Shown here one piece after another: positions 1-64,000 of a stretch of 64,000 bases of DNA (position 1 is the first letter of the stretch; each line of letters begins with the position of its first letter). Under the pieces are notes generated by a model that worked only from the letters and a program-made list of their open reading frames with translations, searched no databases and was not told where the DNA came from. The stretch covers positions 1 through 64,000 of IMG/VR virus record IMGVR_UViG_3300012351_000007; one strand, 5' to 3'. Origin of the DNA: a virus. The translations under genes were made by a program, and so were the position numbers.

Positions 1-70
1 GGATCGCGGTGCGGAGAGCTTCCGCGACCTGCGCATACGGCGGCAGCGGGTCGTCCGGATTGACGGTCAC
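1..70 (-). CDS. GntR-family repressor (Kor/TraR-like), 5' part only, runs off window
   Basis: GTG at 70 reads VTVNPDDPLPPYAQVAEALRTAI, a typical GntR N-terminus; -10-like TACGCT 7 nt upstream (leaderless); divergent from the tra operon; not in ORF track. Confidence 0.7.
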   Translation of the reverse strand, partial: MTVNPDDPLPPYAQVAEALRTAI

Positions 71-77
71 GTCGATA

Positions 78-183
78 AGCGTAAGGGGCTCTAGGTGACC
101 TAGGTAAGCCGCCGCGCCTGCCCTCCTTGACCATCCCTAGACATCTGTGCATACTAGATGTCTAGGGATTTAGATCTAGATGT
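78..183. promoter_or_regulatory. Divergent promoter region with palindromic operators
   Basis: TTGACC(127-132)-N17-CATACT(150-155); perfect 14-bp inverted repeat ATCCCTAGACATCT(133-146)/AGATGTCTAGGGAT(156-169); CTAGGT-G-ACCTAG at 91-103. Confidence 0.7.
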
Positions 184-202
184 GACGGAGGACGAGTTGC
201 GG

Positions 203-598
203 ATGTCAGCCCCAACCCCGCCACCGGTCGGCGAGTTCGAGGCCATCCCCGACCCGTTCGACTGTGTTGCGGCGCTGAACCGGCTGGCGGATGTCATGGG
301 CTGGCGGTTCCCGCGCAGGCACGCCGCCTTGCGCAAGGCGAAGTTGCGCCAGATCCGCGACACGCCGAAACCAGACGGCAGCCGCTACACATTCGCCGAG
401 ATCGGCGAACTGATCGACCTGCACGCCACGCGCGTGTGGCAACTGTTGGCCAAGAACAAGTCGAGGCCCGACGCCGTAGCGCCGGACCTCGCCGAAGAGT
501 GTGCCCCAGCCGTCGTGCTGCCAACGACGCCCGCACGGAGCCGGAAGACCGCGGCGGCTGGGGACTTCCAGACGATACCAGCGGAGGCCACGTCATGA
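203..598 (+). CDS. Helix-turn-helix DNA-binding protein
   Basis: YTFAEIGELIDLHATRVWQLL HTH; GGAGGA RBS precedes ATG 203, while ATG 158 lies inside the promoter. Confidence 0.6.
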   Translation: MSAPTPPPVGEFEAIPDPFDCVAALNRLADVMGWRFPRRHAALRKAKLRQIRDTPKPDGSRYTFAEIGELIDLHATRVWQLLAKNKSRPDAVAPDLAEECAPAVVLPTTPARSRKTAAAGDFQTIPAEATS

Positions 599-792
599 CG
601 GCCCACGGCGGCGGCATGTACTGCCCGATCCCCGGCCCTGACCTGGACGGGCTGACCGCCCTACTGCGGGCGAAGGCCGACGAGTACCAGCGTCTCGCGG
701 CCGCCTTCGCGGCCCAGAACCCCTCACCGACGGAGCGGCCCGAAGCCCTCCTCCACCCGTCACCCGCCCTGAACGGAGCCCGCCATGCCTGA
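595..792 (+). CDS. Hypothetical protein
   Basis: ATGA overlap with upstream gene. Confidence 0.45.
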   Translation: MTAHGGGMYCPIPGPDLDGLTALLRAKADEYQRLAAAFAAQNPSPTERPEALLHPSPALNGARHA

Positions 793-1138
793 CCTGAACA
801 CCCTCGACGAGATCCACGCTTGGCGTCCCGCCTGGACCGACGAACTGCACCCCGCCTTCTGCGGCACCGGCGTCGGCTGCGACGGGCACCACCTCTCCGA
901 GGTCGCCGAGGTCCACACCGGAGGTACCGGGCCGTGGCTGAAGGTGCTCGCCGACATGGACCGCACCGGCCGGTGCACGGTGATCCTCGGCTGCGACGAC
1001 GACCGGGGCGTCAACTTCGAGCAGAAGCTGACCATCGGCGCCGCGGTGGCTCTGGCGCATGCCCTGCTCGATGCGGTGCACGTGGCGCGGACCCAAACCC
1101 GGATGGTGCGACGTGACGTGCTGGCGGTGGCCGCGTGA
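785..1138 (+). CDS. Hypothetical protein
   Basis: GGAG RBS, operon position. Confidence 0.55.
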   Translation: MPDLNTLDEIHAWRPAWTDELHPAFCGTGVGCDGHHLSEVAEVHTGGTGPWLKVLADMDRTGRCTVILGCDDDRGVNFEQKLTIGAAVALAHALLDAVHVARTQTRMVRRDVLAVAA

Positions 1139-1202
1139 AGCCGCTCCACGCCGCGAGCAGGCGACAGTGCCGCAGCGACGACACCAAGGAGAACGAGCCC
1201 CG

Positions 1203-61351: not shown

Positions 61352-61596
61352 GCGGCACCACCGGAGCGCTCCTGCAGATTGCGGAGGTACTCGCCCGTCG
61401 CGCGACCGGCGTCGAACGCCCACTGCGCGTGCTCGGTGCGTTCCCGCTCCAAGGTGGCACGCAGCCGCTCGACCTCGGCAACCAGCGCCGGAACGTCGGC
61501 GATGACCTCCCATGGGTCGCTGGACACCCAGTCCACGGCGGCGCTGGACTCGATGTACCGAGCCTTGATCGGCGCCAGGTCCAGCGGTTCGGCCAT
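61348..61596 (-). CDS. Ead/Ea22-like small phage protein
   Basis: LDLAPIKAR...DVPALVAEVERLR. Confidence 0.55.
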   Translation of the reverse strand: MAEPLDLAPIKARYIESSAAVDWVSSDPWEVIADVPALVAEVERLRATLERERTEHAQWAFDAGRATGEYLRNLQERSGGAA

Positions 61597-61886
61597 CACT
61601 GCGCCTCCTCGGGAACGGCTGGGATCGCACCCAACGCCCGCAGCACCGGCAACACCCGGGCCACGGCAACAGTCCACTTGCCGCCCGGTCCGGTCAGGGT
61701 GTACCCGGACGCGAGGAAACCGTCGAGATGGACCGACCAGACACCCGCCGGGGTGCTCCACGTCCACGTCGCCTGCCCCATGCCGAGCAGCGGCATGGAG
61801 ACGTGGGTATGCTCGGGTAGGGCCTCGGCGAGGATGCGCGCGAAGGACCTCGGCTCCGTCTCAGCGGTCTTCTCTTCGGTGCTCAT
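61596..61886 (-). CDS. Hypothetical protein
   Basis: TGATG overlaps. Confidence 0.5.
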   Translation of the reverse strand: MSTEEKTAETEPRSFARILAEALPEHTHVSMPLLGMGQATWTWSTPAGVWSVHLDGFLASGYTLTGPGGKWTVAVARVLPVLRALGAIPAVPEEAQ

Positions 61887-62260
61887 CAGGCCCTCCATAC
61901 GGTGACCGGGAACGAGTAGTAGTCGTGCTGTGGGGCATCCCAGCGGATCAGCCAGTCCTCCGGGTCGGCGTGGGGAACCTCCCAGTACACCCACGCCCAA
62001 CGGCGTTCCAACTCGTCGGCGACAACCACGCCCGGTTTCCGCTGCCCGTCGTAGATGTCCTCGAAGCCGCAGTGGCGGGCGGCCTTGTTGAAGGCGGCGA
62101 TCACCCGGCGCGGCTCGTGATGGCCAAGCGCGAGTAGGAACTCCGCGTCGTCACCGACGTAGCACACCTTGACGCTGTAGAAGGTTCCGAAGCCGGGCAG
62201 GTTCTTCGGGTCGCGGTAGTGGCTGCGGGGTAGGTCGAGAGACAGGGTTCCGGTGGTCAT
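61886..62260 (-). CDS. Hypothetical protein
   Basis: AGGAG RBS. Confidence 0.6.
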   Translation of the reverse strand: MTTGTLSLDLPRSHYRDPKNLPGFGTFYSVKVCYVGDDAEFLLALGHHEPRRVIAAFNKAARHCGFEDIYDGQRKPGVVVADELERRWAWVYWEVPHADPEDWLIRWDAPQHDYYSFPVTVWRA

Positions 62261-62322
62261 GCGGTGCTCCTAGCGAGGGGTCGGGAAGGTAACGGTTCGG
62301 GTAGGGATGTGGAATCGGGAGG

Positions 62323-63045
62323 TCACGCCGGCACCTCTGCGACATCGAACTCCGTAGCCATGGCCAGCAGCACCGAGCATGGCGCCGAGAGGATGCGTTC
62401 GTACTGGCCCTGCCACTCGCCCGCCCACGACCCGGCCTGAAGCGAGCAGGCGGAACAGGCCACCGTAAACGAGGCGGTGAGGCACTCCACCTCGTCGCCG
62501 TGGTCGCAGCCACCCTCCGCGCAGTCCTCCGAGACCAGCATTTCCGGCTGGTGCGCGCAGATGTAGCCGAGCAGCTGTGCCCAGCGGGGGCTGTCCGCGT
62601 CGTAGTCCTTCTCCTGTCGCCGCTGGTCGAGGATCACGCGGCAGATGCGCAGGAGCAGCGTCGGATCTGCCCCGAGTCGCCGGTAGGCCGTTTCCTCGGT
62701 GGGGGTTGGCGCGAGCGCCGCCAGTTCCTCGTCGGTGCGGTCCTGGTCGAGTGCCACTACCCAGGCGCAGCGGGGACACACCCGATGTGTGGCCAGGTGC
62801 TCGTTGCCGCGCCGGAACTCGCCCCACTTCCGGGCGACGATCACAGCGAGGCCGCACTCTGCGCCGACGTACGGCCAAGGGGAGTCGTCGCCCGCCTGTC
62901 CGGCCGCTCGGACGGCATGGTCGCGGGGAACCGCATGCAGCCCGCCAAGGTCGCGGGCGATGCCGATGACGTAGGGCACGTCGGGGACTGCGGTGACCGG
63001 GAAAGCGCCCGTCAGGTCCCGGGCCTCGGTGGACGGGTCAGACAT
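62323..63045 (-). CDS. Hypothetical Cys-rich protein
   Basis: H..CG..CPRC; H..C..C.H..C..CSAC..PC. Confidence 0.55.
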   Translation of the reverse strand: MSDPSTEARDLTGAFPVTAVPDVPYVIGIARDLGGLHAVPRDHAVRAAGQAGDDSPWPYVGAECGLAVIVARKWGEFRRGNEHLATHRVCPRCAWVVALDQDRTDEELAALAPTPTEETAYRRLGADPTLLLRICRVILDQRRQEKDYDADSPRWAQLLGYICAHQPEMLVSEDCAEGGCDHGDEVECLTASFTVACSACSLQAGSWAGEWQGQYERILSAPCSVLLAMATEFDVAEVPA

Positions 63046-63838
63046 CGATGCCGCTCCCGTCCACGGGCGCCTCGGCTGCCTCGTCCGTCTCGCCTGCGCC
63101 GGGCTGGACCTCCACCGCAACCTCGGGCAGGCCGTACTCGCGCGCCCAGTCGTACGTCAGTTCGTGCACCGTGTCGCCAGCCTCCCAGGCCAGCCAGATC
63201 TGCCGGGCGGCGTGATCGGCGGCCTGCGGGTCGGCCTTGGCGAAGGCGCGCAGCACCGACGCCAGTCCCCATTCGGCGACCAGCGCCGCCGAGTTCTGGA
63301 AGTAGATGGCGCGGCCGTCGTCGTCCTCCCGTTTGATGAGTTTCCAGACTTCGGCGCACCGGTGCTGGACTGAGCGGACGAGGCCCCGGGCGATGGCGTC
63401 GGCAGTGGCCTGCGCTTCCGTGTTGGGGTAGGGTGCCGGGCCTTCGCCGGGGACGGCGTCGTCGCGGTCGGGTACCGCAGGCGGGTACTCGGCGGTGCGG
63501 CGGGCTGCGGTGACGGCCTCCTGGTGCTCCGCGACCTGCATCCGGATCGAGTCGACATCGCCGGTCCAGTCGACTGGCGTCGCACCGAGCGCATCGGCGG
63601 TGCGGCGGGCCAGGTCGATGTCGTCGGCGTCCCAGCCCAGCGGGATCGCAAGCCCGCTCGCGGCGTGGGTCAGCGCCCACGAACCGGACAGGCCGCCGTT
63701 GCGCAGCATCGGGGTGACAACCAGCCCCGGGGTTCGGGTCGGCTCGGCAACCACCGCCACCTTGCGCCAGCCGGTGTCCGATGCCTCGTCACGGACGGCG
63801 ACCTCACACGTTGCTGGGTAGTCCTGGTCTTCGGTCAT
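63038..63838 (-). CDS. Hypothetical phage protein
   Basis: AAGGA RBS; PGLVVTP..WALTH..SG. Confidence 0.6.
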   Translation of the reverse strand: MTEDQDYPATCEVAVRDEASDTGWRKVAVVAEPTRTPGLVVTPMLRNGGLSGSWALTHAASGLAIPLGWDADDIDLARRTADALGATPVDWTGDVDSIRMQVAEHQEAVTAARRTAEYPPAVPDRDDAVPGEGPAPYPNTEAQATADAIARGLVRSVQHRCAEVWKLIKREDDDGRAIYFQNSAALVAEWGLASVLRAFAKADPQAADHAARQIWLAWEAGDTVHELTYDWAREYGLPEVAVEVQPGAGETDEAAEAPVDGSGIDV

Positions 63839-63895
63839 CTCGGGTTCCTTTCGGTGAGGGGTTTGTAGGGCAACGACGGAAAGGGGGGTGGAGGT

Positions 63896-64000
63896 TCAGG
63901 GATCGTCGGGGAGTCCGAGGCGTCTTCGCTCCCGCCGGTCGGCGCGGGCTTGCCACCAGTCCAGGAGGCGGAAGCCGAAGAACGTGTAGGCGATGCCAAG
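63896..64000 (-). CDS. 3' end of a probable membrane protein (partial)
   Basis: LGIAYTFFGFRLLDWW..GLPDDP*. Confidence 0.35.
   Translation of the reverse strand, partial: LGIAYTFFGFRLLDWWQARADRRERRRLGLPDDP

Follow-up and report, generated by a model that had tools for sequence, protein, structure and literature searches.

The window, i.e. the whole 64,000-nucleotide stretch that was analysed, is rather likely the major portion of a single integrating temperate siphovirus-type element with a built-in Gram-positive-type (Tcp/MPF-FATA-like) T4SS module, which would give the lineage two transmission routes. It was taken from a soil-metagenome contig of at least 85.7 kb, contains the larger part of the element, and belongs to an IMG/VR record with a CheckV completeness of 97%; the host of the contig was probably a Micromonosporaceae actinomycete. 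A transfer (tra) arm on the + strand, the VirB4/M23/DUF2637/FtsK operon at 1.3-12.7 kb, converges on a complete siphovirus late operon on the - strand at 15.5-47.7 kb. The tra and virion gene sets are both present and, except for terL, intact, and they share a single contiguous molecule without any att site in between.

The built-in module comprises small membrane proteins, a VirB4 ATPase, a VirB6-like channel protein, a VirB8-like protein and an M23 wall hydrolase, followed by DUF2637/Spd-like membrane proteins and an FtsK translocase. The features of this arm are as follows.

182-598, + strand: 138-aa HTH-like protein, first gene upstream of the transfer operon (gene call)
1287-1550 and 1564-1923, + strand: two small membrane proteins (87 aa with 2 TM, and 119 aa) in the VirB2/VirB3 positions (TM topology)
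1920-4445, + strand: VirB4-type conjugation ATPase, 841 aa (Pfam AAA_10, E 1e-23, 84 bits)
4442-6088, + strand: polytopic membrane protein, 548 aa, in the VirB6/TcpH position (about 7 TM segments)
6085-6702, + strand: VirB8/TcpC-like protein with an N-terminal TM, a linker and an NTF2-like domain (AlphaFold and Foldseek)
6699-7799, + strand: membrane-anchored M23 peptidoglycan hydrolase (Pfam Peptidase_M23, E 5.5e-24; N-terminal TM)
8167-9590, + strand: DUF2637 membrane protein (8167-9075; Pfam DUF2637, E 1.5e-15) and a 5-TM protein, Spd-like position (TM topology)
10165-12687, + strand: 129-aa protein and membrane-anchored FtsK translocase (FtsK 10561-12687; Pfam FtsK_SpoIIIE, E 5e-61, FtsK_alpha and FtsK_gamma)

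The Pfam AAA_10 cut-off is 27.5 bits, which the VirB4-like ATPase exceeded; its top NCBIfam match was TcpF (E 2.5e-22), under the TcpF cut-off. This ATPase was 35-37% identical to Streptomyces and Rhodococcus plasmid proteins, and 64-65% identical to element copies in Dactylosporangium fulvum and D. sucinum. The 548-aa polytopic protein had no family match; it shared 52-55% identity with the element copies, and its synteny was conserved at 78 of 80 loci. As for the VirB8/TcpC-like protein, the C-terminal domain was modelled with a pLDDT of 80-94, and its best Foldseek matches were TcpC (3ub1, E 7e-4) and the VirB8 protein PrgL (7aed, E 1.3e-3), the NTF2 fold itself being generic. The two small membrane proteins gave no match in family searches, including Pfam and NCBIfam. 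Their original labelling as VirB2/3-like draws only on the TM topology and on their position, which is conserved: in 62-71 of the 80 genomic loci they immediately precede VirB4. The 138-aa protein was likewise without a match in Pfam and NCBIfam, and its homologue in an IMG/VR relative (G002, 55% identity) adjoins a GntR homologue. The FtsK protein has alpha, motor and gamma domains; its motor and gamma domains were 65-69% identical to the chromosomal host FtsK of Micromonosporaceae, and its identity to the sister-element FtsK was 54-58%, in the motor only. In a Streptomyces plasmid DUF2637 adjoins FtsK, the FtsK/DUF2637/ParA-linked operons of Streptomyces plasmids are syntenic with the tra module, and Rhodococcus/Prescottella plasmids carry homologues of it. 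This likeness was counted as pointing to a conjugative ancestry of the module.

The phage arm, together with the insertion sequence lying in it, has the following features.

15980-16336, - strand: holin-like protein, 4 TM, last conserved late-operon gene (TM topology)
16337-17724, + strand: IS605-family element with tnpB (16429-17706; Pfam OrfB_IS605, Cas12f1-like_TNB, HTH_OrfB)
18479-20244, - strand: lysis cassette of endolysin (19351-20244), 4-TM protein and TM plus coiled-coil protein (PHROG endolysin/amidase; TM topology)
20617-29993, - strand: tail module of minor tail proteins, Dit, 1450-aa tape measure, chaperones and major tail protein (PHROG, E 1e-14 to 1e-49)
30462-31345, - strand: head-tail connectors (PHROG tail completion, tail terminator)
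37473-44685, - strand: head module of capsid, decoration, protease, MuF-like protein and portal (PHROG; portal E 9e-121)
45566-47070, - strand: large terminase (terL), split by a frameshift (PHROG_38, E 2e-80)
47055-47660, - strand: candidate small terminase (phrog_3678, E 8.5e-58, function unnamed)

The endolysin, the tail, connector and head proteins named above, TerL and the candidate TerS all had PHROG matches (best E 1e-121). In D. fulvum, D. sucinum and two further relatives (G280 and G296), prophages without VirB4 included, the late operon closes with a homologue of the holin-like protein, and the candidate small terminase is kept upstream of terL in relatives. The full TerS-to-lysis module that the original prediction described is complete as a late operon, but terL is frameshifted, a TnpB IS605 lies inside the lysis region, and TerS is a candidate only. 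The terL gene can be read through only if the frame shifts by -1 at G GGA AAA, at about 46.81 kb, and the tblastn match to the TerL of relatives fell into two frames, divided at the Walker A motif. In or near the late operon there are three insertions or remnants of IS605 type, namely the TnpB IS, a mini-IS and a solo IS end. The ends of the TnpB-bearing IS605 element are repeated at 54812-54865, and at this element the read depth goes up and contigs break. Since terL carries the -1 frameshift and three such insertions are present, the virion route may be broken in the window's copy. We therefore weighed whether the element is a decaying hybrid, in which the virion genes are dead and an integrative conjugative element now encloses a dead prophage. 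The position of the frameshift inside the Walker A motif, the TnpB IS, the mini-IS interrupting a small gene between terL and portal, the solo IS end at 54.8 kb, and about 1 kb of additional DNA in the head operon (40917-41916, compared with relative L006) would fit such decay. However, the remaining virion ORFs, the tape measure among them, are long and intact, the slip site G GGA AAA has the form of a canonical heptamer for -1 shifting, the shift could be a one-base assembly error in the A run, the IS elements sit between genes, and the CheckV completeness is high. Decay to this extent is accordingly regarded as quite unlikely.

Between the two arms lie the following features.

12706-15328, no strand assigned: variable cargo of small ORFs, a YdjM-like membrane hydrolase (13446-14180), a GntR wHTH and three Cys-rich small ORFs (Pfam YdjM, GntR)
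14333-14530, - strand: GntR wHTH, 65 aa (Pfam GntR)
14545-15412, no strand assigned: strong stem-loops where + and - transcription meet (fold z-scores)

As for the Kor-type switch for transfer that the original prediction put forward, the GntR protein consists of the 65-aa wHTH only and is convergent, not divergent, to tra. Strong hairpins were located at 14185-14237, 14545-14694 and 15339-15412, with fold z-scores of -4.3 (14545-14694) and -2.45 (15335-15484), and a terminator-like site at 15397-15412. No tRNA, host gene or att copy was found in this region, which confirmed the predicted layout of convergent tra and virion arms separated by a GntR cassette and hairpins. Since the DNA came from a metagenome, and contigs break both at the IS and near 18.1 kb, where there is a 0.2-kb repeat, assembly could have joined a fragment of a plasmid or ICE to a phage. 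Nevertheless, a Logan contig spans 12540-16373 with 0 mismatches and joins the 3' end of FtsK to the holin-like gene that closes the late operon. Exact junction-bridging contigs were obtained from several runs and at least two samples (other soil samples), and the depth was alike in both arms, about 8x (X1/X2) and about 7x (X3/X4). Moreover, a complete isolate chromosome has the matching junction architecture. An assembly chimera is thus scarcely credible.

The relatives bear on whether the linkage is a property of the lineage. D. fulvum has a chromosomally integrated insertion of 109.6 kb in which tra and phage genes follow the order and spacing of the window (VirB4 at 3,632,478 on the + strand, portal at 3,672,077 on the - strand, matching in spacing and orientation). 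The insertion is bounded by 23-bp direct repeats at a distance of 109,591 bp; a tyrosine integrase adjoins attR, and the attB is contiguous and unoccupied in four congeners (G008, G011, G013 and G014). In D. sucinum, a 113-kb contig (C35) has the same layout and gene order as the window. The pairing of tra and virion genes is therefore shared by relatives, as the original prediction had required. The VirB4 proteins of the three elements formed one clade (support 0.98) apart from 79 chromosomal copies, and the divergence between the window and D. fulvum was similar in both arms, with identities of 52-64% for tra and 34-57% for virion genes. Of nine Micromonosporaceae prophages whose portal is related, eight had no linked VirB4, and the VirB4-M23 core has been lost from one sister element (G280); the tra module is therefore dispensable.

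Two tyrosine recombinases were found on the contig.

53330-54407, - strand: XerC/D-like tyrosine recombinase (53330-54334; Pfam Phage_integrase and SAM_1) and a dif-like inverted repeat (54383-54407)
82177-83082, same contig, beyond the window: second tyrosine integrase

The resolvase-like recombinase beside the dif-like site (CACATAA-GGGGAA-TTATGTG) had been predicted to be the only one; it is real and the sole one within the window, but the second integrase and an attP lie beyond. The attP core corresponds to the 3'-terminal 44 nt of tRNA-Arg(ACG), with a match of 96-100% in genomes of Micromonosporaceae, and the att region has the attP configuration, not attL/attR. To its right lie cas1-cas2 and CRISPR DNA. 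These data bear on whether two distinct neighbouring elements are present, either a phage-ICE tandem or an ICE lately nested in a phage. Such tandems and nested forms are common, with 612 genomes or curated cases and some at tRNA-Arg (Huang et al. 2026, PMC13651849); one MAG has as many as 12 copies of the tRNA-Arg core, which points to tandem accretion there, and the cas1-cas2 and CRISPR DNA could be part of a neighbouring element. However, no second att core was found in the contig (the next-best 48-mer had 21 mismatches), so att repeats do not set two elements apart, and the D. fulvum insertion has two att cores and no third. Genes for an integrase, a relaxase or replication are lacking within the tra arm itself, and gene order is alike in the three elements despite differing integrase and head genes, with VirB4 monophyletic. 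Two separate elements are thus very improbable.

A true phage-plasmid was also considered, i.e. an autonomous circular replicon like P1 or pZL12, whose multimers the XerC-like/dif-like pair would resolve and which would spread by virions and conjugation. The attP configuration, the contig without host genes, the Xer-like recombinase adjoining its dif-like site, the D. sucinum contig made of element DNA only, and the precedent of pZL12 and pSLE1, both with two integrases (PMC4487206), agree with it. Against it, no Rep or ParA/ParB was found in about 90 proteins scanned, and the genes for replication are of phage type (DnaB, a loader-like ATPase and an HTH_36 protein). The integrase is accompanied by a bona fide tRNA-Arg attP, the D. 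fulvum relative sits integrated, no terminal overlap was found and the contig end falls inside the CRISPR array, and the portal had no match among 72,556 plasmid records. The predicted extrachromosomal state is therefore not upheld, and we consider an autonomous replicon unlikely.

The remaining question is whether the module serves transfer. Its VirB4/VirB6/M23 cluster has a paralogue at a fixed Micromonosporaceae chromosomal locus between folP/folK/DUF3180 and ftsH (Dactylosporangium, Micromonospora), with VirB4 60-64% identical, in more than 560 genome stretches. Because of this housekeeping paralogue, the module may not be dedicated to conjugation. The T4SS-like operon could be a phage-borne copy of a host cell-envelope system that does not transfer the element and serves, for example, DNA or protein release or uptake, phage DNA movement between hyphal compartments, competitor exclusion or help in lysis. 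The FtsK motor and gamma domain, which seem newly captured from host ftsK, are consistent with this reading, as is the search for mobility genes: Rep_trans and TrwC were absent from the whole contig, the scanned proteins had no relaxase domain, and no oriT or clt was identified. On the other hand, the phage-borne VirB4 clade is separate from the chromosomal copies and is accompanied by FtsK and Spd-like genes, as in Streptomyces plasmids; an FtsK match lay within about 10 kb of VirB4 in only 18 of the 80 genomic loci, and near VirB4 in none of four conserved loci inspected in detail. A purpose other than transfer is doubtful, though plausible enough to be weighed.

Our preferred reading thus remains one integrating temperate phage with a T4SS module. 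That two modules share one element is borne out by the bridging contigs at equal depth, the lack of an att scar, the linkage in relatives and VirB4 monophyly; of the predicted single replicon spreading both ways, this part stands, the phage-plasmid status does not, and the dual spread is what we infer. As a lysogen, the element would be seated at tRNA-Arg, or be a temporarily excised circle resolvable by the Xer-like/dif-like pair. Induction would lead to virion assembly, and the T4SS-like channel and the FtsK pump would together deliver the excised element, the DNA probably being double-stranded, to an adjacent hypha or cell on contact. If virions are built and the T4SS/FtsK machinery transfers DNA, virions and contact would be two routes of spread for the lineage.

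The original prediction held that phage-plasmids generally lack conjugation systems and that actinomycete ICEs and plasmids lack virion genes. This premise, and with it the novelty of combining phage and conjugation, was overstated, given the phage-ICE tandems (PMC13651849) and the conjugative plasmid-phages pZL12 and pSLE1 of Streptomyces, of which pZL12 is a precedent for dual spread (PMC3583192, PMC4487206). Since the same pairing of tra and phage genes is present in two cultured Dactylosporangium species, such phages may, besides forming virions, pass from cell to cell by contact.

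Two converging gene sets, a conjugation (tra) operon and a siphovirus late operon, had been placed on a single replicon in the original prediction, and the presence and convergence of both were confirmed by domain and PHROG matches. The whole contig is 85,698 bp long, and the window covers its bases 1-64000. The record has a G+C content of ~70%, contains no tRNA genes, is classed as 'linear' in IMG/VR with a CheckV completeness of 97%, and was traced to soil metagenomes by a look-up of its sequencing runs. Neither a terminal overlap nor an inverted terminal repeat was present at the contig ends. 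Since raw ORF lists are noisy at ~70% G+C, genes were called with a codon-usage model trained on long ORFs, and 133 genes were obtained. The tra arm (1.3-12.9 kb, + strand) is a single tightly coupled operon, and on the - strand a complete siphovirus late operon, read from 47.7 to 15.5 kb, makes up the phage arm.

Features of the contig
tra operon, first genes, + strand: 87-aa protein with two TM segments; 119-aa membrane protein
tra operon, + strand: VirB4-family ATPase, 841 aa (Pfam AAA_10; 84 bits, cut-off 27.5)
tra operon, + strand, after VirB4: 548-aa protein with ~7 TM segments, VirB6-like by topology and position only
tra operon, + strand: 205-aa protein with an N-terminal TM segment and a C-terminal domain of high-confidence predicted NTF2-like fold
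tra operon, + strand: anchored M23 peptidase (wall hydrolase), then a DUF2637 protein, then a 5-TM protein
10561-12687, + strand: FtsK, 708 aa, with alpha, motor and gamma domains, the last large gene of the operon
Between the arms: small ORFs, genes for a YdjM-like protein and for a GntR winged helix of 65 aa, and several strong hairpins where the arms converge
Late operon, lysis end, - strand: endolysin, holin-like membrane proteins
16337-17724: TnpB IS605 element, in the lysis region
Late operon, tail side, - strand: major tail protein, chaperones, 1450-aa tape measure, Dit, minor tail proteins
Late operon, head side, - strand: candidate TerS, TerL, portal, MuF-like protein, protease, decoration protein, capsid, connectors
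64-82 kb: early genes for DnaB, a loader-like ATPase, an HTH_36 protein, a methyltransferase, DUF5131, an exonuclease and a Gp3-like protein
82177-83082: second tyrosine integrase, outside the window

The Tcp system of Clostridium perfringens pCW3, and those of pIP501 and pCF10, are Gram-positive (MPF-FATA) T4SSs, and the predicted part list of the tra arm appears to match a system of the Tcp type. The AAA_10 match provides the VirB4-family ATPase, for which the top NCBIfam match was TcpF, the Clostridium conjugation ATPase (79 bits, cut-off 1100). The M23 peptidase, assigned by Pfam, provides the wall hydrolase, and the membrane-anchored FtsK_SpoIIIE protein within the operon provides a coupling ATPase resembling the TcpA type; no VirD4-type coupling protein was seen. 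The polytopic VirB6-like protein would have its counterpart in these systems, as would the NTF2-fold VirB8-like protein, whose closest solved structures were TcpC of pCW3, as the top match, and the VirB8 domain of PrgL (E ~1e-3). Since the NTF2 fold is generic, this fold match is support, not proof. However, the similarity to the Tcp and other MPF-FATA systems is remote, the hydrolase is of the M23 family, the FtsK retains a chromosomal-type gamma domain, the carrier is a phage, and no relaxase was found in the element. Rep_trans (MOBT) and TrwC (MOBF) relaxases were absent across the whole contig, Pfam scans of the contig proteins gave no relaxase domain, and no integrase lies within the tra arm.

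The TraB systems of Streptomyces plasmids and AICEs (pSVH1, pIJ101, pSAM2) operate without VirB4, VirB6 and VirB8. The tra arm shares with TraB/Spd modules a membrane-anchored FtsK-family pump, DUF2637/Spd-like proteins, a nearby GntR-family regulator and the lack of a relaxase; it differs in having the VirB4-type set and in its GntR protein, which is a bare 65-aa wHTH. Moreover, the element FtsK scored only 47 bits with the NCBIfam plasmid_TraB model, whose cut-off is 800; with its alpha and gamma domains the protein is FtsK-like. T4SS-like/FtsK operons with the gene order of the window (small membrane genes, then a VirB4-like ATPase, a large membrane protein, a small protein and a peptidase, with FtsK and DUF2637 near) were found on small plasmids of Streptomyces (e.g. 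NZ_CP050694.1) and on plasmids of Rhodococcus/Prescottella. However, their identity to the window was only 32-37% and these replicons carry ParA; no virion genes were annotated around their VirB4, and the plasmid collection gave no portal match.

The motor and gamma domains of the element FtsK were 65-69% identical to the chromosomal FtsK of hosts, a tally that takes in four unpublished genomes (G151, G079, G225 and G119), but its identity to the FtsK of sister elements was 54-58%, in the motor only. That this FtsK is nearer to the host protein than to those of its sister elements implies that the gene was replaced through recombination with a host ftsK, and its motor/gamma part looks to have been captured recently. 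The predicted XerC-like recombinase and dif-like inverted repeat proved real, and the gamma-bearing FtsK beside this pair suggests, in our reading, a link to dimer resolution.

In the phage arm, the portal, capsid, protease, tape measure, major tail and lysis genes each had a PHROG match, as expected of a siphovirus. The terL gene is split at Walker A (46800-46850, - strand): frame 0 reads ...PQEGK and the remainder follows after a -1 shift at an in-phase heptamer, G GGA AAA. TerL aligned to its relatives in two frames, and in those relatives the gene is continuous in one frame. The shift may reflect an assembly error of one base, genuine damage to the gene or a programmed slip. In or close to the late operon, IS605-type DNA occurs three times, and a solo fused left-end/right-end remnant of the TnpB IS605 was observed at 54812-54865, near the Xer-like gene. 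A small gene at 18059-18361 is duplicated at 44897-45548, between terL and portal, where the second copy is broken by ~0.3 kb of IS-like DNA. Between the MuF-like and protease genes lies ~1 kb of lower-G+C DNA (40917-41916); in the closest relative (L006) this DNA is missing and the two genes lie directly side by side. The TnpB IS605 element (16337-17724), the terL frameshift and all the DNA beyond the window had been overlooked in the original prediction.

The linkage of the two arms could in principle be an assembly chimera. Independently assembled Logan contigs from four runs, two possibly of the source sample and two from other samples, were aligned to 1-20 kb and covered it with zero mismatches. 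The depth was equal in the tra and phage arms (~8x in one run pair and ~7x in the other), and one contig spanned 12540-16373, linking the ftsK 3' end, via the GntR cassette, to the holin-like gene. Contig breaks were confined to the IS and to a repeat of 0.2 kb near 18.1 kb (duplicate at 44.9-45.5 kb); beside these, no listed piece bridged 17715-18251. Homologues of the holin-like gene close the late operon in related prophages, including some without VirB4 nearby, and the gene is thus a phage gene. Given the bridging contigs and the phage identity of this gene, a chimera at the junction is very unlikely. Furthermore, the DNA between the arms had no att-like direct repeat, its matches of 13-14 nt being at chance level.

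Beyond the window, the contig carries phage-type early genes (64-82 kb) and the second tyrosine integrase, which adjoins a terminator hairpin and a 48-nt tRNA 3' end lacking its 5' half. This 48-nt stretch had 96-100% matches in Micromonosporaceae genomes and falls, in one Dactylosporangium genome, on the 3' end of an intact tRNA-Arg(ACG); it is therefore attP. As expected of a temperate tailed phage, the element has an integrase together with an attP that matches a host attB. No second att core was present in the contig, the next-best 48-mer having 21 mismatches, and the attP configuration fits an unintegrated form. On the other side of attP are cas2 and cas1 with three CRISPR repeats, the last of them 6 nt from the end of the contig. 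Since the contig stops inside a CRISPR array, that end is an assembly break and not a genome end. The cas2/cas1 genes (contig 84055-85698; L005:5058-6698) are Type I-E-like and stand alone, with a CRISPR repeat period of 61 bp; lying on the far side of attP, they may belong to the element or to a neighbour. The tRNA-Arg att core was also observed 12 times in one MAG (G010, contigs C13, C6, C4 and C2), with several copies 10-25 kb apart, which suggests that arrays of elements have accreted there.

The label of phage-plasmid was not supported. No Rep or partition gene was found among ~90 proteins scanned with Pfam, PHROGs and NCBIfam, a set to which ~40 small ORFs do not belong, and an integrase and attP are present instead.

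The proposed linkage was then looked for in relatives. Megablast of the window gave no match in the phage collection and only ftsK fragments among plasmids. IMG/VR was scanned with two single proteins, the minor tail protein and VirB4, and genome contigs were initially scanned with VirB4; none of these scans found relatives. Five IMG/VR relatives found with the portal (G001-G005) have only the head module in common with the window and lack VirB4 and FtsK, and were discarded as a test of linkage. The closest VirB4 homologues (87%, 71% and 67% identity) lie on contigs of 3-23 kb, and the closest named ones (62-65%) are from Micromonosporaceae. An alignment-based scan of species genomes gave 80 VirB4 loci, most of which were a conserved chromosomal cluster; the metagenome scan also gave mostly chromosomal-type copies, and only two metagenome loci (L234 and L235) had a full Tra-FtsK.

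This chromosomal paralogue consists of small membrane genes, VirB4, VirB6-like and M23 genes between folP/folK/DUF3180 and ftsH, a position fixed in both Dactylosporangium and Micromonospora (L056:8373-16217 in Dactylosporangium sp. CA-052675 and L131:8495-16221 in Micromonospora globbae). The VirB4 pattern was matched in >560 genome stretches, and no FtsK occurred within 10 kb of the cluster in the four loci examined closely. The cluster resembles a chromosomal T4SS-like system passed on vertically in Micromonosporales/Glycomycetales. Since it is a fixed housekeeping cluster, such machinery would have a host-level role too.

A second VirB4 copy was found in Dactylosporangium fulvum NRRL B-16292 at 3,632,478 (+), with a portal at 3,672,077 (-) that is 55% identical to that of the window; spacing and orientation are as in the window. 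The gene orders also agree, both in the tra genes (small membrane genes, VirB4, VirB6-like, VirB8-like, M23 and FtsK) and in the converging phage genes (holin-like gene, tape measure, tail, connectors, capsid, protease and portal). The D. fulvum element (NZ_CP073720.1, ~3,597,317-3,706,930) is flanked by an exact 23-bp direct repeat, AACGGCACGTATTCGTAGTCCAT, with its copies 109,591 bp apart and a 432-aa tyrosine integrase just within the right one. No third core was present within 200 kb at up to four mismatches, and in four other Dactylosporangium genomes the flanks are contiguous over a single core, an empty attB; D. aurantiacum is an example of a species with this site empty. A repeat-bounded insertion with two cores and an empty attB elsewhere means that the tra and virion genes of D. 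fulvum form one insertion. A nearby tRNA-Leu was ruled out as the att site, since its 3' end points away; the core is the 23-mer over a start codon. In a fifth genome, that of D. roseum (G012, C1:3709672-3717334), a different insert of 7.7 kb was observed in the same 23-bp attB, which overlaps the start codon of a host gene. The D. fulvum element also encodes an 867-aa protein (L140:8702-11302) with an N-terminal 2_5_RNA_ligase2 domain (Pfam; 2'-5' RNA ligase superfamily) and a C-terminal ADP-ribosyltransferase toxin-like domain, and a C5 cytosine methylase split by a Hint/LAGLIDADG intein (L141:13895-17014).

A contig of D. sucinum (113,299 bp) has the layout of the D. fulvum element; its tra genes share 63-88% identity with the D. 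fulvum ones, but its head genes differ. In a tree of 84 VirB4 sequences, rooted with a Streptomyces plasmid homologue, the window, D. fulvum and D. sucinum formed one clade (support 0.98) with 79 chromosomal copies outside it. The predicted linkage thus recurs in the D. fulvum insertion and the D. sucinum contig. Between the window and D. fulvum, identity was 52-64% for the tra genes and 34-57% for the virion genes, and this broadly similar divergence of both arms would fit a long co-residence. Taken with the bridging contigs, the equal depth, the one att core of the contig and the single insertion in D. fulvum, the claim that both arms belong to one element is supported.

A related portal was present in 9 of the 401 Micromonosporaceae genomes sampled, and only in D. 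fulvum did VirB4 lie beside it. A fourth element, a sister prophage (L236-L241; G280:C25:217800-319700), is alike in architecture, keeps the genes that flank the D. fulvum tra core, and has a g15-like gene like that of the window. VirB4 through M23 are absent from it, with only a weak FtsK-like match, and its tra module was either lost or replaced. The rarity of VirB4 beside portals and its absence from this prophage therefore indicate that the module is old in the lineage, yet can be lost.

Phages and conjugative elements are mostly viewed as alternative routes of moving DNA, and conjugation genes are reported to be rare in phage-plasmid surveys. One large survey screened for them with CONJscan (PMC7969092), and Phi1207.3, a Streptococcus pyogenes prophage, is described as able to transfer conjugally (PMC4260502). 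The premise that a combination of phage and conjugation was unknown is wrong, because pZL12, a Streptomyces plasmid-phage, was shown to be one by experiment (Zhong et al. 2010; PMC3583192, PMC4487206). pZL12/phiZL12 and its relative pSLE1 resemble the present element in size (~86-90 kb), in their mycelial actinomycete hosts, and in joining a full tailed-virion operon to conjugal genes around an FtsK-like Tra; pSLE1 also has two integrase genes (PMC4487206). However, pZL12 is autonomous, with RepA and ParAB, and transfers by one major tra gene together with two neighbours, and no VirB4-type set is reported (PMC3583192, PMC4487206), whereas the window's element has VirB4, VirB6, VirB8 and M23 genes, attP and an integrase, with no Rep or Par gene found. 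No sequence similarity to the pZL12 plasmids was detected, the window portal being unmatched in the plasmid collection.

The element could alternatively be a prophage and an ICE lying in tandem. Huang et al. (Sci Adv 2026, PMC13651849) describe 612 phage-ICE tandems and nested ICE::Phage or Phage::ICE arrangements, in which prophage and T4SS genes are likewise linked and able to move as one, with tRNA-Arg among the att sites. These are two cooperating elements "rather than a hybrid element", each partner having its own boundaries and integrase (PMC13651849). In contrast, no internal att, integrase or relaxase of its own was found for the tra arm of the window, the contig has a single core and the D. 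fulvum element two, and the arrangement is common to three diverged elements. The present element differs in carrying a VirB4-type set rather than a TraB-only one, on a carrier that integrates and is not a plasmid replicon; in having a tra arm with no internal boundary; and in that a cultured strain holds an att-defined copy.

On the most economical reading, the T4SS-like channel and the FtsK pump would move double-stranded DNA, and contact transfer of the element is plausible. The similar divergence of the arms in three elements points to a stable dual-route strategy and not to an accident. It is possible, although we consider it rather doubtful, that a lineage of integrating tailed phages of sporangium-forming actinomycetes has a working VirB4-type channel and FtsK pump, by which it passes its excised dsDNA genome between cells without a relaxase. 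Since D. fulvum NRRL B-16292 is cultured and has a complete genome with exact att sites, the question is testable at the bench. A mating-channel set of VirB4 type that a phage genome holds without a separate boundary contrasts with the two-element tandems, and the absence of a recognisable relaxase bears on how Gram-positive T4SS parts may be combined with FtsK-type dsDNA pumps. If true, such relaxase-free passage of the excised genome would be a hybrid mechanism, neither classical T4SS conjugation nor TraB-only transfer, and would give the phage a second, capsid-free route of infection.
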